Shown here: positions 1,975-61,016 of the stretch, in pieces | How the letters are laid out: each line of letters opens with the position of its first letter | Numbering within the stretch: the stretch's first letter is position 1 | Source of the DNA: a virus | Taxonomy: Duplodnaviria; Caudoviricetes | Length of the DNA: 64,000 nucleotides | Virus record (IMG/VR): IMGVR_UViG_3300035497_000412 | Strand: one strand, 5' to 3' | The notes under the pieces: generated by a model | The model's input: only the letters and a program-made list of their open reading frames with translations | Databases searched by the model: none | Told to the model about the DNA's origin: nothing | Made by a program: the position numbers and the translations under genes

Positions 1975-4900
1975 TTAATTGAAAAAAGCCCATTCTTTTG
2001 CATTAAATTTCTTATGCTTCTTCTTACTATCTTCTTCTTGTTTTATATAATACAATCCATAACACAATGAGGAAAATTTATCTTTTCCGATTCGTTTATT
2101 AGATCGCTTTAAAATAATATTAATACCTTCTGCTTCTTCTTTAAGGTTTAACAACTCTTCTTTTAAAATATCTGTTAAAACAAAAGGCATCAAATAAGAA
2201 TCTCTTTGTTCTGGAGTCATATTCTGACCCAATCTAGTACCCATTAAGCTATTTTTAGCCAATCGTGCTTCGCGCAAGAATTTAATCTTTCCACTTTCAA
2301 TCTAACTTTTAATAGTAGAAAAAGCTTCAGTGTTAACAGGAGCATTTGCTTTCATAATATAAATAGCTTCATCTTCTGTATCATTAGTTCTGAATCTCTT
2401 ATATTCTTGCGTGGCATCATCTTGCGTTCCACCATAAACTCCAAATGGAGGATAATATTCACCACCTCGGTCTTGTGATTTAACCATGTAATCAATAAGA
2501 CCAATGCCCAGGCCGTTTCCGTCTATCACAACTCGTTTTGCCTTATATTGGTAAAATAATTTTTTAATCGTAATAGCCTAATCCTCCATGTGCATATCTT
2601 CATACACAAAGATATTCACTAAATTCTTTATTGAAGAGCCTTGCGGCTATGGTGTTACTTTCAATGCACAAATAACTGTTTGGTCTCCTTTGCGGCCTAC
2701 GTCTACAGATAGTATATAATAAGCCTATGAAGAAGACCTCCCTGAATATTCATATTCAGGCTTTTGTAAAATTCTATTTCTATCAAACTTTTCACCATCA
2801 AAGAAAGCATCCTCAACTGTTCCAGTCCATTTACTTTCCATTTTTCCTTGCGATATTTCGCTAATATCTCTCTGGCTTTCACCAGAAGGTGAGATCATAT
2901 CATCTACATAACGCCACACGAAACCTTTATATGTTTTAATTTTACCACGACAACATTCACCAATATGCGCATGGCTTTTAAGACCGAGCGCACGAGTAGC
3001 AGTTCCAACAGATGGATAAGTTGTAATATACTTTCCATTTAAATCATATTGATTTACCGCTTTAGCTCTTCCATTGTTTTTATAATTCTTAACTTCACCC
3101 AACTCTGAAGAATAAGACCAATAAAAGTTACCGCTTAAAGCTTTAACATCTTTATTTAACTCTTGTAAAATAATCGAATAATTTACTTTAGTAGCTGCGG
3201 AAGCATCGGCCGCAGTCAAATATTCAGCAACTAATTGTTTATCTTTATTAAAGCAAAAAACGTGATTATATTTTCTTAATTCATTTTCTAATGCGTCTTC
3301 TGAAGTAGCCCATTCAAGATTATCTACACAATTATTCAATTTGTTGCCATCAATATGATTAACTTGGTCCTCTTTATCATCTGTCTTTTCAATAAAAGCT
3401 TCTGCTACTAGTCTATGGGCGTAACATCTTTTTTTCTTTCCAGAAGGTAAAGTCAAATTATAAGAAAAATAACCATTTCTTTCATTTACCTGCCCTTTTA
3501 GATATTTGTTAGTGTTTGAATTAAAACATTTTCCGTCTTGTGTGATATAATATGAGGTACTGATATTATCAATAATAATATTTTTCATAATAACAACCTT
3601 TCGTTATTTTTGTAGTATTGCGCTGCTTAACGCTTTGTTAAGTCTTGATCGTTGAACCTTCTCCTTGCGGAGCTTGGCTGCTGATTGTCCAATCCAGTTT
3701 ATTTTTAAAACATTCGTGCGGATAACTGCACTGTAGTTAAACTGGCTCTAAGGAGTTCCCAGCAATTCACAATATTTAAAGAGTACAAAAGTCTATACTC
3801 TCGTTCAAAGGATGCTTCATTAAACGTTGTATCTTTCTTTAATCCCAGAATGAATGATTTAGATTGGAGGCCAGTTACTACTGGTCATTTTTTTTTGATT
3901 TAATGGACTATATCATCATTAACAAATTTCCACTTATAATTATTGCATTTTTTTTGTTTACTTAAACATACAGCACTGATACCTTTTCTATTAGAATTGG
4001 TCTATCTGGCCGCATCAGAAACGCTATCAAATATTTTAATTATTTCATCTTGTTCATTCAACTAAGCAACTCTTTTTTTTCTACCTCTATCTTCTGGAAT
4101 AAAATCTTCTTCCCATTTCCAAATAAAACCTCCGGAAGTTTTCCTTGTCCCATTAGCAACCTCTCGTATTTTAGAAGCTCCTGTAGCTCTTACAGCATCA
4201 GTTAAGCTCTAAAAAGTTTGCAAGTATTCTCCTTGTAGATTATATTGCTTTACTGGTCTTAATATGTGAGCATGGTTTAATCCATTTCCCCATGCGTGTT
4301 GATTATTTTCTGAAGAAGTATTCCATTCTAAATTTTCTAAACGATTATTTTCTTTATCCCCATCTTTATGATTTACGGTTAAATTTTCCATATTTTGAAC
4401 TGGAATAAAATTTTCAGCCACTAATCTATGTCCAGTTATATAGATAGGATTACCATTTAAATATAAATTAAATTCTATATAACCATTCTATTTCTAATTT
4501 CCTTTTATTAATTCCTTGGTAGAGTAGTTTCTTACCTATCCATCATCTGAAATTTCATAATTTAATATTTGATCTTTATAATTAATTCTTTTCCACATAA
4601 ATTTTTACAACTCCTTTCTAAAGTATATAAAAATTATTCTGGAACATGGAATGGAAGTTGTCCATTTTTTTTTGTTAATGCGAAGCGCTTCAGCCAGTGA
4701 TAAAATCTGGCTTACAGGATTACACTCATCATCCTTAGTCTCTACACTTTCTTTTACTCATCATAAAAGCTTAGCACGGGATAAAGTTATCTCTCTTCCC
4801 CCGTTAGCCCAGTTGGCTTGGACACCGCTTTTTCTTGCGTTCACTTCGTTTTAGGCGCACACCACTCTATGCGCCATGTGCCTCCCATAATATAAGCTTC

Positions 4901-6552
4901 ATCTGGTTTAACTATCATTTGAGTTAAAGTTTGAATTAATTTATCATAACTATAAGTATTTTTATAGCCTGCGGTAGTTCCTTTTATTCCACACAGCTCG
5001 CTATTTCTATGTGCGTTCTCTTATGAACTGCTATATATTCCTATATAGAGTAGACTATATCTTCACCTTCAACTTTACTTGTTAAGGGCCTCCCGCTTCG
5101 ACTCGCTTGAGTCTACGTCATTCGACTAGTCGTTGAACCTTCTCCTTGCGGAGCTTGGCTGCTGATTGTCCGTTCTGGACTTCCCAGCAATTCAAGAGGT
5201 TTGCTTTTGCTAATTTCTTAACAATGATACTAATTAAATTAATATAAATTTGACTTTGATTTAATGTTTCAGATTCTTGTGTTGTACCATCCATGCACTA
5301 ACGAGACACGTTCATTAGCAATTATATTGGACTATATCATCAACTATATAAAAATAGCTGTCACGCGCTTCGATCGGTGATAAAATCCGATCTACAAGAT
5401 TACACTCATCATCTTTAGTCTCTACACTTTCTTCTATTCAACATAGAAGCTTAGCACGGGATTCTCTTTTGAAGTTCCCCGTTAGCCCAATTAACTTGGA
5501 CACCCCTTTATCACGGGTTCACGCAATTTTCTTTAGTGATTCACACCACTAAGCCCCCTAATGTCGAGGGATAATAATTTGCTAGAGCATATCTTGGTCA
5601 ACACCAACGCATTCTTCTATAACTCCTGCGTGTTTGCGCAAGCCACGAGAACTCTCTCTAGCTGCAACGTTTTCAATATCTGAACCATTTTTAAGAATAA
5701 TTTTACACTTATCTTTACCCATTTGGGTCTAACCTCGACGCCAGTCTATTTCTCGTTTAAACGCTGGTATCTTAGCACAAATATCATTAACTTTCTCTTG
5801 CAAGATTTGAGAACTTTGTTCTTTTCCTCCAGCAGTAGTAAACTAATGAGACCCTGGATATAAAATTCCTCTAATTAATAAAATCATAACTGAAAGGAAA
5901 GATTTTGAATCTTTATATTCTAATAAGTTCGCAACGCTTATTACGTTCTCCAATGAACTGCTTATATTTTCATATAAGAATAGACTATATCACGCTTTAT
6001 TATGTTAATAAAGCCCTCCTTTTTCGATTTAAGGGGTTCTCACCCGCCGCATTAACTTCGGCCCTACTCCTATTGCTTCTATTTTTATTCCGAGGAAGCT
6101 TTCTCAGGATAGTCGTTGAAGTTTATAAATAAATCATTTATATTACCTGCGGATTCCCATATTAAAGTAACTTAGGGTTCCCGCATTTTAAGAGGTTTGT
6201 CCACAGAGATCATATGAAGCTCTCTGATTTGGCGCAATTCAATTTACGCTCTCGGATATACAGCATAAACATATTTATATCTCATGCCTATTCTTAAAAA
6301 TACCCTCTAATAAAAAAATAAATTAAAGGTTATTTTTATTTCTTTTCCGTCATGATTCTTATAATAAATGCCATCTTCTTTTTCATAAGTTGGCTTGCCA
6401 CCAGTCTACATAAAATCTACGAATAAATCAGGATATTCTCTCCAAAAGGCAAAGTATTGCCGCAAGACAGGCTTAATTGGGAGGATGCGTTCTTCGGAAA
6501 TGCCAATCTTCTTTTTATTGTTATTAATTAATAATAAATCTTCTAACGCCAT
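1975..6552 (-). CDS. terL: Terminase large subunit, 597 aa after splicing; exons 6552-6246, 5910-5567, 5318-5242, 4979-4869, 3885-3795, 2838-1975; 10 in-frame TAG
   Basis: Spliced frame gives FY[Q]RVFLR, Walker A PRAYSKS, Walker B VIEE, YITTAG, FEREYESKW, nuclease SVDVGR and KDKFSS; exon lengths sum to 1794 nt. Confidence 0.92.
2725..3588 (-). CDS. Intron-encoded HNH homing endonuclease; no stop inside the intron, frame continues into terL exon 6
   Basis: HRLVAEAF..VNHIDGNKLNNCVDNLEW plus NUMOD1-like repeats; last 37 aa are terL exon 6; first stop is TAG. Confidence 0.88.
   Translation of the reverse strand: MKNIIIDNISTSYYITQDGKCFNSNTNKYLKGQVNERNGYFSYNLTLPSGKKKRCYAHRLVAEAFIEKTDDKEDQVNHIDGNKLNNCVDNLEWATSEDALENELRKYNHVFCFNKDKQLVAEYLTAADASAATKVNYSIILQELNKDVKALSGNFYWSYSSELGEVKNYKNNGRAKAVNQYDLNGKYITTYPSVGTATRALGLKSHAHIGECCRGKIKTYKGFVWRYVDDMISPSGESQRDISEISQGKMESKWTGTVEDAFFDGEKFDRNRILQKPEYEYSGRSSS
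2839..3794 (-). mobile_element. Group I intron 5 of terL (956 nt) carrying an HNH homing endonuclease
   Basis: AATTGCTGGGAA / AATCAGCAG / TTCAACGATCA / GATATGATC (variant P7); guide ACTTTT-G-TACTC; removal restores EREY|ESKW. Confidence 0.92.
3886..4868 (-). mobile_element. Group I intron 4 of terL (983 nt) carrying an HNH homing endonuclease
   Basis: Core similar to intron 2; guide TGGT-G-TGCGCC pairs with exons ACCA and GGCGCAT; ORF lies between R and S. Confidence 0.92.
3900..4598 (-). CDS. Intron-encoded HNH homing endonuclease (NUMOD4-HNH-NUMOD1 type), 232 aa, six in-frame TAG
   Basis: SD AAAGGAG, MWKRI..YEISDDG[Q]VRN..HRLVAENF..VNHKDGDKENNRLENLEW..; ends across the intron S element (GAT ATA GTC CAT TAA). 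Confidence 0.88.
4980..5241 (-). ncRNA. Group I intron 3 of terL (262 nt)
   Basis: AATTGCTGGGAA / AATCAGCAG / TTCAACGACTA / AAGATATAGTC; removal restores YITTAGY. Confidence 0.9.
5319..5566 (-). ncRNA. Group I intron 2 of terL (248 nt)
   Basis: GCTAACGGGGAA / AATCCCGTG / TGTAGAGACTA / TGATATAGTC; guide CATTAG-GGGG pairs with 3' exon CTAATG and 5' exon CCCT. Confidence 0.92.
5911..6245 (-). ncRNA. Group I intron 1 of terL (335 nt, no ORF), inside Walker A
   Basis: Exon ends in U, intron ends in G; P AAAATGCGGGAA, Q AATCCGCAG, R TTCAACGACTA, S TGATATAGTC; guide TTGAAT-T-GCGC pairs with both exons. Confidence 0.92.
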
Positions 6553-17670: not shown

Positions 17671-18072
17671 ATGGCTACTATGAAGATTACTAAGCGCGAT
17701 TATTTTACCACCCTGTCCACCCTCGTTCATGAGAGCGACTTCCCCCATGTCGTAGGTGATAAGGAAATCACCTACGAGCAGATGGTTGAGTTTATCAGCC
17801 ACGAGATTGAGCTTTTGAACCGCAAGAATGCCGCGGATAGCTCCAAGGGGCTAACCGCTAAGCAGATCGCCCGGCAGGAAGTCATGAATGCGATGCTGAC
17901 CCGGATGACTTTTGACAAGCCGTATTTGGTTTCTGATATTATCAAGACTTTCCCCGAATGCGAGGGCAAGAGTACCAGTGAAGTTTCCCGAATGCTCCAT
18001 GATTTGGTAAAGGCTGGTATTGTTGAACGCATTGAGGAAAAGCGCAAGGCGTATTTCATTCGCCGGGCCTAA
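17671..18072 (+). CDS. Winged-helix DNA-binding protein (paralogs 21715..22104, 35186..35635)
   Basis: TKRDYF..HEIELL..VSRMLHDLVKAGIVERIEEKRKAYF. Confidence 0.7.
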   Translation: MATMKITKRDYFTTLSTLVHESDFPHVVGDKEITYEQMVEFISHEIELLNRKNAADSSKGLTAKQIARQEVMNAMLTRMTFDKPYLVSDIIKTFPECEGKSTSEVSRMLHDLVKAGIVERIEEKRKAYFIRRA

Positions 18073-18136
18073 TTCTCCAAAATTTGGGAAGGGGGATATC
18101 CCCCTTCCCAAAGCCCCATAAAAAGGAGGTCCAAAA

Positions 18137-41601: not shown

Positions 41602-41718
41602 AAGACGCAACCAGCAATTTATTTTTTTTAATGGAGTTATATGTCACAAGTTCGAGTCTTGTCAATCAGCGGGATTGTAGCTCAGAAGGTAGAGCAATAA
41701 CATAAAAAATGTGTCTTG
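41602..41718 (+). ncRNA. Circularly permuted tRNA-like RNA on a CAGCAA-bulge stem (YrlA/Y-RNA-like topology)
   Basis: Outer stem AAGACGCA/TGTGTCTT; T arm ACAAG-TTCGAGT-CTTGT precedes D arm GCTC-AGAAGGTA-GAGC; acceptor CAATC/GATTG closed by a loop. Confidence 0.8.
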
Positions 41719-41726
41719 TTTCATAT

Positions 41727-41801
41727 AGGGGTGTAGCATAAAGGCTAGTGCGGCAGGCTTTGACCCTGAAGATAAGTGTTCGATTCACTTCATCCCTGCC
41801 A
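41727..41801 (+). tRNA. tRNA-Gln(UUG)
   Basis: CAGG-CTTTGAC-CCTG, G73, CCA. Confidence 0.88.
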
Positions 41802-43986: not shown

Positions 43987-44054
43987 TTTGACTTTTTAAA
44001 AATTTTTTGATATAATATATATACAGTTAAGGAAGAAATTATTCTTCCTTACAT

Positions 44055-44527: not shown

Positions 44528-44573
44528 TAATTTTATAAGGGATAAGTATTACCTTATCCCTTATAAATCTTAT

Positions 44574-44887
44574 AGTGGCATGGTGTAATGGTAGCACAGC
44601 GGTCTCTTGAAAATTGGACACCTAGCGTCGAAAGTGCTAGTGTGAATGGAGCCTAAAACGGGGAAACCCTAAGTGAATTTTTCATATGGCAATCCCGTGC
44701 TAAACTTCTACTTGTCAGTAGAAGAAATGTGTAGAGACTATATAGTTCCAATCTAACCCAAATTTTGGTATGATTAAGAGATAGTCCAGACCACAACAAT
44801 TATTTTGGCTATGGAAACATAGTGTGGTAAGAAAACCGTATCCCCCTGAAGGAGTAAGTGAAAGTTCGAATCTTTCTGCCACTGCCA
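44574..44887 (+). tRNA. Amber suppressor tRNA(CUA) split by a group I intron
   Basis: AGTGGCA/TGCCACT-G-CCA; spliced arm GCGGT-CTCT|AAA-ACCGT gives a 7-nt loop with anticodon CTA. Confidence 0.88.
44608..44831 (+). ncRNA. Group I intron in tRNA-Sup(CUA), 224 nt
   Basis: AAAACGGGGAA / AATCCCGTG / TGTAGAGACTA / AAGAGATAGTC; guide GGACACC pairs with exon GGTCTCT; terminal G. Confidence 0.9.
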
Positions 44888-45260: not shown

Positions 45261-45611
45261 GCCGCCGTGGTGGAATAGGTAGACACCACAGACTTTTTGG
45301 AATACACAAGGACAACTTCATTAAAATCTTCCAAAAAAGTGTATTCTTAATAGAGCCATAAGATAGGAAACTTCTTATGGGATGTGCGCTAATTCGGCGA
45401 AACTCTCTTTGAGACAACGCCGAGCTAAGTTCAGATTTATCTGATAAATGTGTAGAGATCATATACGCACCTCCTAAGTCAGTATAACTGATATGGAGAA
45501 GACATGATCCAGACTACAACGGTTTTGTCCAACCGGCTATGGCGACATAGAGTAGTAGGAAAATCTGTTATTGGAAACAATGTGCCGATTCGAATTCGGC
45601 CGGCGGCACCA
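45261..45611 (+). tRNA. tRNA-Leu(UAA) split by a group I intron
   Basis: GCCGCCG/CGGCGGC-A-CCA, Leu-type D loop and long arm; ACAGA-CTT|AAAA-TCTGT. Confidence 0.85.
45296..45559 (+). ncRNA. Group I intron in tRNA-Leu(UAA), 264 nt
   Basis: AATTCGGCGAA / AACGCCGAG / TGTAGAGATCA / AAGACATGATC. Confidence 0.88.
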
Positions 45612-46768: not shown

Positions 46769-48322
46769 ATGAATAGTTTTATTAATGGATTGAAGAACGC
46801 TACTAATTTCACTTTTACGGAAAATCATGCAATCACACATAAAACCTCTAACTCTGATCTTCTGGATATGTTTGCTATGGGTGGCGCATATAGAACCCGT
46901 TCTGATGAAGATTGTATTCTTCTTTTTAAGAACGCTCTTGAAGAAAATGAAGAGTATGCTATGAAGTGTTTGTTTTACCTCAGAGACGTTCGCGGAGGCC
47001 AGGGCGAACGCAGATTTTTCCGGGTATGTATGCGCTGGCTGGTCTCTGCGCGCCCTGAGACCGCTCGCCGCAATCTTCAGTATATTAGTGAGTATGGTAG
47101 ATGGGATGATTTGATTTATATTTGCTATAAAACTCCTCTTTGGAAGGATTGCGTAGCTATTGTCAAGCATCAGCTGGCTTTGGATTGTGAAGATGTAATT
47201 ATGAACAATGGCGCCGTGAGCCTGCTTGCAAAGTGGATGCCGAGTGAAAATACTTCTAGTGCCAAAACTAGAGAAGTAGCTTCTGCTCTGAGAAAGGGTC
47301 TTGGTATGACTTCTAAGCAGTACCGCAAGACTCTTTCTACCCTGCGTGAGCGTATCAATGTTCTTGAGCGTCTTATGTCCGCTGGAGAATGGGATAAAAT
47401 CGACTTTTCTAAGATTCCTTCTAAGGCTGGATTGAAGTATAAGAACGCTTTTGCAAAGCATGATCTTGACCGTATGGCTCTTGGAAAGCAGACTTATGAA
47501 GATTTTGCTAAAGATAAGAATACTACAGTAAATGCTGATACTCTTTATCCTTATGAAGTTGTTGCAGAAGTTATGAAGGTTTTTGGCGGCGTATATTCTC
47601 TTCGTTTTAATGCAGGCAAAGTTCCTTTGAATGACACTAATCGTTTGATGGTTAACAAATACTGGGACAATCTTTATGACTATTTCCAAGGGGCATCTTT
47701 GAATGCTATGGCGGTGGTTGATGTGTCTGGAAGTATGTTCGGTGATTGCGCTTCTGCCCCTCTCAATGTAGCTATTTCTCTTGGAATGTATTGCGCCGAG
47801 AAAGCAAAAGGTCCTTATGCTGGTCATTTTATGACTTTTAGTTCTAAGCCCGACTTCGTAAAAGTAGAAGGTGTTGATTTTTACGATAAGGTTGTTAGAA
47901 TGACTAGAACTGATTGGGGTGGATCTACCAATATTGAAGCTTGTTTTGACTTGATGCTGAAGGTCGCTATTGATAATAATCTTTCTCAAGACGAAATTCC
48001 GGCAAGTTTGATTATTATCAGCGATATGGAATTTGACGACTGCGCTACTTCAAAAAGATGTAGACTCCGTCATGTCGGTGATACAGCCACGTTGATGGAA
48101 ATGATTGAAAAGAGATGGAATCAAGCTGGTTATAAAATGCCTTGCCTTACTTTCTGGAATGTTGATGCTCGTCACAACAATATTCCTATGAAAGTTAAAG
48201 ATGGCGTTCAGTTCGTTTCTGGTATGTCTCCTTCAATTTTCCAGATGGTGATGGAAAACAAGAATGCTTTCGATTTGATGTACTCTGTACTTGATTCTGA
48301 AAGATATTCTGCAATTAAGTAA
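46769..48322 (+). CDS. DUF2828 / TROVE-like protein with C-terminal vWA domain (Ro60-related)
   Basis: TENHA, LRDVRGGQGERR, YGRWDDL, AKWMPSE, MIDAS VDVSGSM, IISDMEFD, FWNV, VSG. Confidence 0.85.
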   Translation: MNSFINGLKNATNFTFTENHAITHKTSNSDLLDMFAMGGAYRTRSDEDCILLFKNALEENEEYAMKCLFYLRDVRGGQGERRFFRVCMRWLVSARPETARRNLQYISEYGRWDDLIYICYKTPLWKDCVAIVKHQLALDCEDVIMNNGAVSLLAKWMPSENTSSAKTREVASALRKGLGMTSKQYRKTLSTLRERINVLERLMSAGEWDKIDFSKIPSKAGLKYKNAFAKHDLDRMALGKQTYEDFAKDKNTTVNADTLYPYEVVAEVMKVFGGVYSLRFNAGKVPLNDTNRLMVNKYWDNLYDYFQGASLNAMAVVDVSGSMFGDCASAPLNVAISLGMYCAEKAKGPYAGHFMTFSSKPDFVKVEGVDFYDKVVRMTRTDWGGSTNIEACFDLMLKVAIDNNLSQDEIPASLIIISDMEFDDCATSKRCRLRHVGDTATLMEMIEKRWNQAGYKMPCLTFWNVDARHNNIPMKVKDGVQFVSGMSPSIFQMVMENKNAFDLMYSVLDSERYSAIK

Positions 48323-54134: not shown

Positions 54135-54140
54135 TATACT

Positions 54141-55436
54141 ATGGCTTATTTTGCATATGTAACTACTTTACAGAATCTGCGGCCACATCCTAATGCTGAT
54201 CGTCTTCAGTTAGGAGATTGCTTTGGTAATACTGTTTGCGTTAGCATGGAATATACTGAGGGGCAGATTGGAATTTATTTTCCGGTAGATGGACAGTTGT
54301 CTGAGGAGTTTGCTGAAAAGAATAATTTGATTCGACACAAGGATGAAAATGGCAATAACATTGGTGGCTATATGTCGGATAAGCGCAATGTTACTGCAAT
54401 CAAGCTGCGAGGTCAGAAGTCCGATGGACTGTTTCTTCCGATTTCTTGCTTAGCATATGCTGGTAATACTTCCAAGTTGCAAATTGGCGATGCTATTAGT
54501 GTATTCAATGGGCATGAGATTTGTCAGAAGTATATTCCTAAGAAGAATTCTCGACAGAATGTTTCTGCTGGCAACCGCACCCGTAAGAAGAAGGTTCCTA
54601 TGGCCCCTCTTTTTATTGAACACGTTGATACTGAACAGCTTGCTTATCATATGAGCGACTTCCAGCCTGGTGATGATGTAGAAATTACTTTGAAGATGCA
54701 CGGAAGTTCACAGCGAACTGGGCATTTGCCTGTTTTCAAGGGATATAAGCGTTCTTTCTGGGACAAGATTACCCATAAGGAAGGAACTCCTATTTATGAC
54801 TGGGGTTATGTGACTGGAACTCGGCGTACTGTCCTTAATGAGGATTCTGAAGGATACTATGGTTCTAATGAATTTCGTAAGGTTCATAGCGATTTCCTAG
54901 AAGGTAAGCTTTGGAAAAATGAGGAAATCTTTTACGAAGTGGTTGGTTATATTGACGATAGAATTTCTATTATGCCTTCTGGAACCGTTCCTAATGAATA
55001 TCGCCAACAATATGGAAAGATTATGGAATTCTCTTATGGTATGACTGCACCCAACTCTGATATGTATGTATATAGAATGACTATGACCTCCCCCGATGGA
55101 GAAATTGTTGAGTACTCTCCTGAGTTTATGCGTTATCGCTGTAAGCAGATTGGAGTAAAGTGCGTTCCCGTCTTATGGCGCGGACGTATTCCAGAAGACA
55201 TTGATATTCCTGCTGGTGAGTGGATTAAGAATATCGCTGAGCGGTATTATGATGGTCCTGATCCTATTGGTAAGACTCATGTGCGCGAAGGTGTCGTCTG
55301 CCGCATTGTGAATCGTCCGAAGTTTGCTGGTTACAAGCATAAGAATTGGCTGTTTAAGTACGTATCTGGTATTATTGTAGAAAAAATTGCTGATAGCGAT
55401 GAAACTTATGATGCAGATATTCTTTCGGAGATGTAA
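54141..55436 (+). CDS. ATP-dependent RNA ligase (DRB0094/Rnl2-like) with N-terminal OB-like domain
   Basis: PHPNADRL, KLRGQKSDG, motif I TLKMHGSS, FYEVVG, motif IV REGVV, motif V KHKN. Confidence 0.85.
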   Translation: MAYFAYVTTLQNLRPHPNADRLQLGDCFGNTVCVSMEYTEGQIGIYFPVDGQLSEEFAEKNNLIRHKDENGNNIGGYMSDKRNVTAIKLRGQKSDGLFLPISCLAYAGNTSKLQIGDAISVFNGHEICQKYIPKKNSRQNVSAGNRTRKKKVPMAPLFIEHVDTEQLAYHMSDFQPGDDVEITLKMHGSSQRTGHLPVFKGYKRSFWDKITHKEGTPIYDWGYVTGTRRTVLNEDSEGYYGSNEFRKVHSDFLEGKLWKNEEIFYEVVGYIDDRISIMPSGTVPNEYRQQYGKIMEFSYGMTAPNSDMYVYRMTMTSPDGEIVEYSPEFMRYRCKQIGVKCVPVLWRGRIPEDIDIPAGEWIKNIAERYYDGPDPIGKTHVREGVVCRIVNRPKFAGYKHKNWLFKYVSGIIVEKIADSDETYDADILSEM

Positions 55437-59483: not shown

Positions 59484-61016
59484 AACGCAATTTCTATGAT
59501 ACAAGCAGTCTACTATTAAGAGCTGATGATTTATTTTCAAAAGAAGAAAATATAGCCTTTTCTTCCATAACTTTACAAGAATTGGAAAGCATTAAAAGTT
59601 CAACGAGTAAAGATTTAGATATAAAATTTGCAGCTCGAAAACTTCTTCATCTTTTTATTAGACATCCAAACGAATATGAAGTTTTTATTTATAATGATAA
59701 TATGAATACTCCTATTTGCAAAAAGGGGCTAGAATTAACAAATGATACCAAAATTCTAGCAACTGCTATAGCATATGATCAAGCATATCCAGATGAAGTT
59801 ATATTTATTACTAATGATTTAGCTTTATACAATATTGCCAATCTATTTTTTGGTAATGATAGTATTGATATGGTTGAAGAGGATAAAGCAGATGATTACA
59901 CTGGATATTTACAGGTCAATATGAGTGAATAGGAAATGGAATATTTTTATTCTAATATGAATAAAAATATTTATGATTTATTAGTAAATCAATATTTAGT
60001 CATTTGTGATAAAGATAATAATTTTGTTGATAGCTATTGCTGGACGGGTGAAAATTATCGTCCTTTAAATTATGATGCTTTTAATTCTATTTGGTTTGGT
60101 AAGGTTAAACCTTATAAGAATGATGTATATCAAAGACTGCTATTTGATAGCTTATATAATAATGATATGACTATCATTAGAGGTCCAGCTGGATGCGGTA
60201 AGAGTTTTTGCGCAATGAGCTATTTAATGTATGCGCTTGATAAAGGCATTATTGATAAGATTTATATTTTTTGTAATCCAGTAGCTACAAAAGATTCCGC
60301 TCGACTTGGGTTAATTTAAATTAGGGTAAGGCTCAAGTATAAAACTCCGTGAATTGCTGGAACCTCCTTAGAGCTATACAAACCACAACATAAACATGAA
60401 ATAAGGTTAAATGTGAAGGTTTAAGAATTGTGTAGATTGGACAATCAGCAGCGAAGCCTCGAATAGAGGAACGTTCATCGACTATCGAAAAGCGCATATG
60501 CGAACTTAGTAGAGTAGGATAATTATCCGAAGCGCGGAGATTCTATTTTTAGAATAAGATATAGTCAGGCTTTTGATGAAAGTCAAAAGGTTAAATGTTT
60601 ACCCTGGCGATAAGAACATGAAGCTTTTAGATTCTCAGATTGGAAATTTTTTAGTCGGTAAATTTGGAGGAATGGAAGCCGTAGATGAATTAATTGAAAA
60701 AGGTCAATTGATTTTAGCACCAATTTCAGATTGCAGAGGAACCGATTTAAGTGGAAAAATTGGAGTTTATATGACTGAAGCGCAAAATACAACTGTTGAT
60801 ATAATGCAATTAGTTCTCCAAAGAGTTGGCAGTAATTGTAAAGTTATCATTGAAGGTGACGATAAAGCACAAGTTGATTTAAATGCTTACTCCAATGGAA
60901 ACAATGGTCTAAGAAAAGCTTCTCAAGTTTTTAGAGGACAAGATTATTATGGAGAAATTACACTAAATGCTTGCCATAGATCAAAAATTGCTAGACAAGC
61001 AGAATTAATGACCTAA
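59480..61016 (+). CDS. phoH: PIN-PhoH protein; exons 59480-60311 and 60598-61016; one TAG
   Basis: PIN YDTSSLL..NDTKIL..ITND; Walker A GPAGCGKS; spliced LGFYPGD; RG, EAQN, GDDKAQVD, HRS. Confidence 0.88.
60312..60597 (+). ncRNA. Group I intron in phoH (286 nt)
   Basis: AATTGCTGGAA / AATCAGCAG / TTCATCGACTA / AAGATATAGTC; guide AGGGTAAG-G-CTCAAGT pairs with both exons. Confidence 0.92.

Follow-up and report, generated by a model that had tools for sequence, protein, structure and literature searches.

The 64,000 nt stretch of phage DNA analysed here (IMG/VR virus record IMGVR_UViG_3300035497_000412, hereafter the window) contains an array of tRNA genes, one of which is split within its anticodon by a group I intron. 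The two exons and the intron occupy positions 44574 to 44887, and in silico splicing of this region yields a 90 nt tRNA with the anticodon loop CUCUAAA and the anticodon CUA. We consider it very probable that the locus is a phage glutamine-type amber suppressor tRNA(CUA) gene, interrupted between nt 35 and 36 by a compact group I ribozyme which lacks an open reading frame (ORF) and is likely to be a mobile passenger. The coordinates of the gene, and of two neighbouring features discussed below, are collected in Table 1. The window belongs to a 155,969 bp JGI contig, from which it differs at two bases.

Table 1. The split suppressor tRNA gene and nearby features of the window (the caret marks a splice junction)
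Feature	Position	Strand	Basis
tRNA exon 1, 34 nt	44574–44607	+	Sequence; ARAGORN on the spliced form and in intron mode
Group I intron, 224 nt, no ORF	44608–44831	+	Rfam RF00028; helices compared with L050 and L051
tRNA exon 2, 56 nt, ending in CCA	44832–44887	+	Sequence; partial tRNA model match (18.6 bits); ARAGORN on the spliced form
Putative pseudo-anticodon hairpin within the variable region	44841–44853	+	Comparison with 77 unique long-arm CUA tRNAs
Split tRNA-Leu(UAA) gene, 264 nt intron (45296–45559) at U34^A35	45261–45611	+	nhmmer; Rfam in a local scan; ARAGORN in intron mode and on the spliced form
Sigma-70-like promoter match (TTGACT, 17 nt, TG-n-TATAAT; 11/12)	43988–44016	+	Consensus scan; weak, number of sites not above that in shuffled sequences

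The split tRNA gene and its ribozyme

Exon 1 supplies the 5' strand of the acceptor stem (AGUGGCA, 44574–44580), the D arm (GUGU/AAUGGUA/GCAC, 44583–44597) and the 5' strand of the anticodon stem (GCGGU, 44599–44603), followed by C32, U33, C34 and U35, the last of which (44607) is position -1 of the 5' splice site. Exon 2 opens with A36, A37 and A38 and continues with the 3' strand of the anticodon stem (ACCGU, 44835–44839), a variable region of 20 nt (44840–44859), the T arm (GAAAG/UUCGAAU/CUUUC, 44860–44876), the 3' strand of the acceptor stem (UGCCACU, 44877–44883), G73 (44884) and an encoded CCA (44885–44887). The long variable region and G73 are therefore both present, as a preliminary description of the locus had stated. 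An identical split gene, comprising tRNA and intron, was found in a second sample, while a BLASTN search of the split gene against GenBank phages returned no match.

The intron matched the Rfam family Intron_gpI (RF00028) with 54.5 bits in a local scan (E 3.2e-13; gathering score 50), and its predicted fold has a z-score of -3.46. We compared its helices with those of two homologous introns, at IMG/VR contigs L050 and L051, that interrupt the same kind of suppressor tRNA. In P1 the exon sequence GGUCUCU (44601–44607) pairs with the internal guide GGACACC (44616–44622), and P2 (44622–44640) is capped by a GAAA loop. The core is formed by P3 (UGGAG/UUCCA, 44647–44651 and 44746–44750), P4 (ACGGGG/UCCCGU, 44658–44663 and 44693–44698), P5 (44668–44689, with the 11 nt tetraloop-receptor motif CCUAAG...UAUGG), P6 (44705–44724, 8 bp), P7 (GACUAU/AUAGUC, 44736–44741 and 44781–44786) and a receptor-like P8 (44750–44775). 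P9 (ACCACA/UGUGGU, 44790–44795 and 44823–44828) encloses the hairpin CUAUG-GAAA-CAUAG (44809–44822). Compensatory changes were observed in P2, P3, P4 and P6 across the three sequences, and P7 and P9 were invariant. Because the first four helices change on both strands, the intron structure appears to be under selection.

Group I introns of subgroup IC3 in tRNA genes are small, lack the P5abc extension, carry GAAA tetraloops in P2 and P9 with receptors in P8 and P5, and are sited in the anticodon loop. The window intron has the GAAA loop L9, a GAAA-type loop L2, the receptor motif in P5 and the receptor-like P8, and on this likeness of motifs it is a candidate member of the subgroup. The terminal omega G is 44831 and is followed by AAAACC; the L050 and L051 introns end in ...GGUAAAG before the same exon. 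From these features we infer that the intron is self-splicing. Two details speak against this reading, namely a conserved C.C mismatch within P1 and a P10 of just 2 bp.

Eight junctions would give the spliced tRNA a 7 nt anticodon loop, and two of them combine U at -1 with G at omega. Only CUCU^AAA both retains U33 and has its -1 U in the sole U.G wobble that P1 contains (U44607.G44616). The predicted ligation joins ...GGUCUCU to AAAACCGU..., and the resulting anticodon arm, GCGGUCUCUAAAACCGU, recurs letter-perfect in CUA tRNA genes that lack an intron, at 107 IMG/VR loci. The same junction, again with a U.G wobble at -1, is found in L050 and L051, and as the introns there begin with G and not U, the ambiguity is removed. 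We rejected the second junction with U at -1 and G at omega, located after U31: it would produce the loop UAAGAAA, without U33, and in P1 the partner of the U concerned is an A instead of a G. The CU^A junction, which the preliminary description had deduced from the 7 nt loop and the fit to the guide, is thus settled as far as sequence allows.

These features are consistent with the following pathway. The precursor would be transcribed along with the tRNA array, and exon GGUCUCU would pair with guide GGACACC to form P1. Free guanosine would attack after U35, the U of the P1 wobble; the terminal G would then enter the G site, and the exons would be joined with the aid of the 2 bp P10 (UU with AA), releasing a 90 nt tRNA with the loop CUCUAAA. 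A host glutamine-pathway enzyme would then charge the product, which would read approximately 265 in-frame UAG codons of the phage.

The unspliced gene was not called by ARAGORN under default settings, and Rfam scans of the whole window, at both thresholds, missed the intron as well as the tRNA, the intron having been lost to the speed filters. The expectation that ordinary tRNA scans might overlook the gene was thus borne out. ARAGORN in intron mode placed both gene ends correctly (44574 and 44887), misplaced the junction and reported Leu(aag), and on the in silico spliced sequence it reported a tRNA(cta) of 90 nt. By default the program labels CUA tRNAs as pyrrolysine tRNA (tRNA-Pyl), which is its name for the anticodon only. 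Whereas tRNA-Pyl has a 3 nt variable loop, a short D loop and a 6 bp anticodon stem, the tRNA described here has a 20 nt variable region, a 7 nt D loop and a 5 bp anticodon stem, and we rejected the Pyl label.

UAG decoding and the identity of the tRNA

Pfam matches to YonG, YonD, YonB, YomW, YorF and YorH identify the phage as SPbeta-like, and its host is therefore probably a member of the Bacillota. Among species genomes, the Gln-type long-arm suppressor was present in only four contigs of metagenome-assembled genomes, binned as Bacillota, Mollicutes, Erysipelotrichaceae and Nanosyncoccus, which is weak evidence regarding the host.

The 144 kb of the source contig that we searched (143,991 of 155,969 bp, 92%) contain approximately 265 in-frame TAG codons, spread over about 60 of 125 ORFs. 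In the structural block, which lies on the minus strand, they reach a density of 10–23 per 1000 codons, against 0–2 in the replication block, and the genes for the portal, the terminase exons, the tail and the lysin, among others, have open reading frames only if TAG is a sense codon. On this evidence the phage genome needs UAG decoding, and the concentration of UAG codons in structural and packaging genes would make splicing obligatory for late gene expression.

With ARAGORN, Rfam and a CUA-hairpin search we detected no second CUA tRNA in the 144 kb, and no tRNA of any kind beyond the window's array; the eight other phage tRNAs all lie within the array of the suppressor. The preliminary description held that the amber suppressor arises only by group I splicing and proposed a search for an intronless suppressor elsewhere in the genome. 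The first proposal agrees with the 224 nt intron that splits the anticodon, and the search yielded no intronless copy in the 92% of the contig covered.

Approximately 12 kb of the contig, positions 1–875 and 144,867–155,969 of the record, lay outside this search, and this 8% counts against the view that the split gene is the suppressor on which the phage depends. Were the gene decaying or poorly spliced, TAG could be read by a host suppressor, by a phage tRNA in the remaining 12 kb or through loss of release factor 1 action, and it is true that many recoded phages lack a detectable suppressor. We regard a non-working gene as very unlikely, since the ribozyme retains every helix and neither exon is damaged, the compensatory changes attest to selection for the fold, two samples yielded one and the same sequence, and the other eight tRNAs share a single array with none elsewhere in the 144 kb.

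To identify the residue at TAG positions, the YonG-like protein and the portal were translated with X at TAG and aligned to full-length homologues, which gave eight sites. Glutamine was conserved at two of the six sites of the YonG-like protein (39/47 and 41/47 homologues); the others held mainly E, N, R, K or Q, and one also had V in 10/47. One of the two portal sites was Q in 29/39 homologues. Glutamine is thus the commonest residue at three of the eight sites, in 74–87% of homologues, and the BLOSUM62 scores summed over all eight sites were 16.8 for Q, 12.2 for E, 5.7 for K and 0.0 for S. The alignments indicate that TAG is read as glutamine and that the suppressor is Gln-type, not Ser-type, although the second place of glutamate in this ranking is a point on the other side.

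The structure of the tRNA is consistent with this assignment. Its acceptor stem and D arm resemble those of the phage tRNA-Gln(UUG) at 41727–41801, and the two tRNAs share A1:U72, G2:C71, G10 and G73. A weak 1:72 pair, G73, G2:C71 and G10 belong to the identity set of the Escherichia coli glutaminyl-tRNA synthetase (GlnRS), and E. coli tRNA-Gln likewise has a weak 1:72 pair and G73. G73 is therefore a normal feature of Gln acceptors, and the preliminary description was wrong to call it unusual. Two Gln identity elements are absent from the suppressor, which has U3:A70 instead of G3:C70 and, where the Gln set calls for the anticodon Y34 U35 G36, A36 instead of G36, so that YUG occurs only in the extra hairpin described below; the latter departure is as expected of any amber suppressor derived from tRNA-Gln. 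Charging by an enzyme of the host glutamine pathway is the predicted outcome.

The preliminary description had also seen a hint of serine identity, and charging with serine, or with Leu or Tyr as other amino acids of class II, would fit the 20 nt variable region and G73, particularly as seryl-tRNA synthetase ignores the anticodon. Ser-type CUA tRNAs do occur in other phage contigs. The TAG sites argue otherwise: they align with Q, E, N, K or R, with S in no more than three sequences at any of the eight, and against the sum of 0.0 for S stand sums of -12.5 for L and -9.4 for Y over the six YonG-like sites. Ser-type tRNAs have a 3 bp D stem with a large loop, a long variable stem that abuts the T stem, and G73. 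The suppressor D arm, in contrast, is Gln-like and not of the Ser type GGCAGAGUGGUUUAUUGC, and its variable region forms a hairpin with a Gln anticodon loop followed by 6 unpaired nt, unlike a Ser variable arm. The hint of serine did not hold, and we judge class II charging to be highly improbable.

The Ser-type (supD-like) CUA tRNAs of other phages comprise 13 unique sequences, at L057, L073, L079, L082, L083, L098, L103, L116, L122, L140 and other loci. The phages that carry them may read TAG as serine or may carry bacterial-type suppressors.

The long variable region of the suppressor folds as UCC(CCCUGAA)GGA, with the loop at 44844–44850 and CUG at 44846–44848, and the loop CCCUGAA copies the anticodon loop of a tRNA-Gln. 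To place this hairpin in context, we collected as relatives those IMG/VR genes that combine the GCGGUCUCUAAAACCGU anticodon arm with a long variable region, leaving the interior of that region unspecified, and obtained 77 unique sequences (loci L056 to L161). In 59 of the 77 the variable region contains a hairpin of 2–5 bp with a 7 nt loop reading C/U, U, C/U, U, G, A, A, as the anticodon loop does in tRNA-Gln(CUG) or tRNA-Gln(UUG). The equivalents of U33 and A37, neither of which was required by the search, are kept in 55 and 52 of the 59 hairpins, and the stems covary (UCC/GGA, CUC/GAG, GCC/GGC, UAUC/GAUG, CCA/UGG and others). Of the remaining 18 sequences, 13 are the plain suppressors of the Ser type, in which both the D arm and the variable arm are different.

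We infer that the hairpin shows a Gln anticodon to the charging enzyme, in replacement of the one lost by the true anticodon arm. This leads us to suggest, as a tentative model that we hold to be possible but short of probable, a two-armed adaptor assembled by a ribozyme, in which the CUA arm reads UAG and the YUG hairpin restores Gln identity, through either GlnRS or a non-discriminating glutamyl-tRNA synthetase (GluRS) with GatCAB; hidden split genes of this kind would make up part of the suppressors missing from phage genomes. Several details tell against the model: the pseudo-anticodon loop of the window tRNA has C and not U at the position matching U33, its stem has 3 bp only, and the tip of the variable arm is located away from the anticodon position of a normal L-shaped tRNA.

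The 5–7 unpaired nt that follow the hairpin mean that it could also be a remnant of an original anticodon arm. A separate reading takes the YUG hairpin as the decoding arm of an ordinary tRNA-Gln and the CUCUAAA hairpin as an inserted extra arm of different role, the unpaired nucleotides then recalling an anticodon arm followed by a 5 nt variable loop. The YUG stem, however, has only 2–5 bp (3 in the window), whereas the CUA arm has 5 bp, a 7 nt loop and U33 and begins one nucleotide after the D stem. Such tRNAs are moreover found in phages full of in-frame TAG, and this phage already has a tRNA-Gln(UUG). We consider the alternative cloverleaf the least likely of the explanations weighed here, and take the CUA arm as the decoding arm.

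Origin of the intron

The preliminary description proposed that splicing gates the code switch. In this scheme the splicing rate or its guanosine dependence would time the appearance of the suppressor and, with it, packaging, assembly and lysis. Splicing would have to precede the reading of any of the ~265 TAG codons, and the split gene is the only suppressor found in the 144 kb. Theta ribozymes beside suppressor tRNAs have been proposed as possible switch triggers (PMC10879173), and recoding itself has been proposed to time late genes (10.1101/2021.08.26.457843).

The distribution of the intron points in another direction. Once spliced, the tRNA of the relative L050 matches the intronless genes of L063 and L087 without a single difference over 85 nt, so that the same tRNA exists with and without the intron. 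The L050 intron has no ORF, and the L051 copy carries in its P5 loop a 130-codon HNH ORF, a homing endonuclease gene. The same intron family occurs at the classical U^AA site of tRNA-Leu(UAA) in L016, L057 and L078, in short-armed UAA tRNAs (L047 and L058) and in a tRNA-Arg(UCU) (L048); the Leu and Arg tRNAs are unrelated to the code. Comparable patterns identified approximately 107 intronless loci versus two with the intron, and the full set of ribozyme tertiary contacts is as expected for fast, constitutive splicing. These observations do not support a splicing gate, which we consider improbable. The intron is most likely a tolerated mobile passenger that homing has carried from one phage tRNA gene to another, rather than an evolved timer. 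Two points weigh against this conclusion: exact exon searches in IMG/VR gave no matches and hence no intronless allele of the exact tRNA, and the presence/absence polymorphism concerns an allele of the relative, not that of the window. Splicing may nevertheless have a kinetic effect and delay the appearance of the suppressor.

A sister intron lies close by, in a tRNA-Leu(UAA) gene 374 nt downstream of the suppressor. It matched the suppressor intron with E 2.8e-9 and the core profile with E 2.2e-16 (nhmmer), and scored 28.1 bits in a local Rfam scan. This split gene was also missed by default ARAGORN and by Rfam at the gathering threshold, and ARAGORN in intron mode called it Phe(gaa). The two target sites, CUU^AAAA and CUCU^AAAA, are alike, which makes a move of the intron family into the suppressor site plausible. 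A recent copy of the neighbouring tRNA-Leu intron is not supported, as the core of the suppressor intron (~125 nt) is 64% identical to the resident Leu intron versus 74–75% to L050, L051 and the L048 Arg intron. A search of metagenome contigs with the P1 pattern re-found only L050 and L051 (as L180 and L174); the 29 other matches, together with L053 to L055 in IMG/VR, were chance matches outside tRNAs and were discarded.

Many further group I introns are present in this phage, in a PhoH-like gene (60262–60588, +) and in the terminase region (3615–3777, 5031–5251, 5315–5576 and 5961–6255, all -), where some carry HNH ORFs that themselves contain TAG. Two more lie left of the window in the structural block (L204:12557–12898 and 17819–18120). 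The tRNA gene at 40810–40957 (+, 58 bits) has a structured insert of 73–76 nt in its anticodon loop, which is too small to be a group I intron. Other phages have homologues whose inserts differ in length (L058:9995–10170, L030:1209–1386 and L113:2854–2981), and exons of this type end in CUU...UUAA or GUAA, which would give the anticodon UUU or UGU.

The sigma-70-like promoter match listed in Table 1 precedes a tRNA-Thr gene, a small ORF and the suppressor, and is a possible host RNA polymerase promoter for that part of the array. Directly 5' of the suppressor tRNA is a perfect 15 bp hairpin (44532–44567), with no T run after it on the + strand, which weakly matched the ssNA-helicase RNA motif (27 bits; gathering score 41.5). 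Elsewhere in the array we observed a YrlA-like Y RNA match at 41624–41712 (+; 39.4 bits, under the gathering score of 69). A weak tRNA-like match at 41473–41541 (+; 32 bits) has a UGG anticodon loop, an aberrant T arm and no ARAGORN call. A gene for a DUF2828/DUF7788 (TROVE/Ro-like) protein lies near the YrlA-like match, at 46769–48322 (+), and an RNA ligase-like gene is located at 54135–55436. In the tRNA array of a related phage, ARAGORN reported a tmRNA-like gene with the tag ARYQYQMAA* (L025:1570–1869 and L019:1380–1679).

Comparison with known systems

Group I introns of subgroup IC3 are known from the anticodon loops of tRNA-Leu(UAA) ('Leu.3Ug'), Azoarcus tRNA-Ile ('Ile2.5Ug'), tRNA-Arg(CCU) and tRNA-fMet. 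The suppressor intron resembles them as a compact ribozyme (~200–260 nt in this class) in the anticodon loop, with U at -1 in a P1 U.G wobble built from the anticodon stem, an omega G, and GAAA tetraloops with receptor motifs; an optional homing-endonuclease ORF is a further common trait. A classical case of this kind, Leu(UAA) with U^AA, is found in the window itself at 45261–45611. Williams (2020, bioRxiv 10.1101/2020.01.27.920355) extended the bacterial tRNA settings of group I introns to 21, and in the numbering given there the suppressor site, between nt 35 and 36, would be '4Ug'. Unlike the known cases, the intron here interrupts a stop-codon suppressor, in a recoded phage whose late proteome would depend on the spliced product. 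In the literature that we covered, which is incomplete, we found no published account of a group I intron that splits a suppressor. If the proposed pathway operates, a phage can hang its whole late proteome on one ribozyme reaction.

Phages that recode TAG to glutamine and carry a suppressor tRNA(CUA) include crAss-like phages, Lak phages and phAss-1, among others (10.1101/2021.08.26.457843; PMC7886860; PMC10607447). The window tRNA resembles their suppressors in its CUA anticodon, in the reading of TAG as Gln, in its location in a tRNA array and in the absence of a phage-encoded aminoacyl-tRNA synthetase, and its phage resembles those phages in the concentration of in-frame TAG in structural and packaging genes. 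It differs in being encoded by a ribozyme-split gene, which is invisible to surveys of the tRNAscan-SE or ARAGORN type, and the three reports make no mention of a long arm with a Gln pseudo-anticodon. A matching suppressor tRNA was found in only ~35–40% of recoded phage genomes, and the remainder were ascribed to undetectable tRNAs (10.1101/2021.08.26.457843; PMC7886860; PMC12386605). Because split genes escape tRNA surveys, they may account for part of the 60% of TAG-recoded genomes in which no suppressor has been reported, and they provide one concrete reason for suppressors to be missing. Use of the splice-site rule (U.G at -1, omega G) in phage annotation would recover such genes and correct the genetic code assigned.

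Theta ribozymes, which are hepatitis delta virus-like, adjoin the suppressor tRNAs of recoded gut phages and cleave at the tRNA 3' end (PMC10879173). In both systems a self-acting ribozyme is coupled to the maturation of a suppressor tRNA, and the same speculation about a trigger applies. In the window, unlike the theta case, the reaction would be excision of an intron and ligation of exons inside the anticodon. Alleles with and without the intron would allow a direct test of the published proposal that a ribozyme is coupled to the code switch.

The E. coli supE suppressor, a tRNA-Gln with the anticodon CUA that is charged with Gln, has a weak 1:72 pair, G73, G2:C71, G10 and U35, and the window tRNA shares all of these features. 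It departs from supE in having U3:A70 for G3:C70 and an extra arm of 20 nt, and the probable Bacillota host may use a non-discriminating GluRS with GatCAB, not GlnRS.

For the natural pseudo-anticodon arm itself our literature search, again incomplete in coverage, found no published description, and the only published analogue found is engineered: in an amber suppressor with a copy of the anticodon arm in its variable arm, charging by the matching synthetase was raised (Mukai 2020, PMC7590224). That design is synthetic, is based on His (GUG) and requires a synthetase to which a further anticodon-binding domain has been fused, whereas the arm in the window is natural and Gln-type and would have to work with an unmodified host enzyme. 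If functional, the Gln pseudo-anticodon arm would represent a new natural way to keep tRNA identity after a change of anticodon, and would be of interest to genetic-code engineers.

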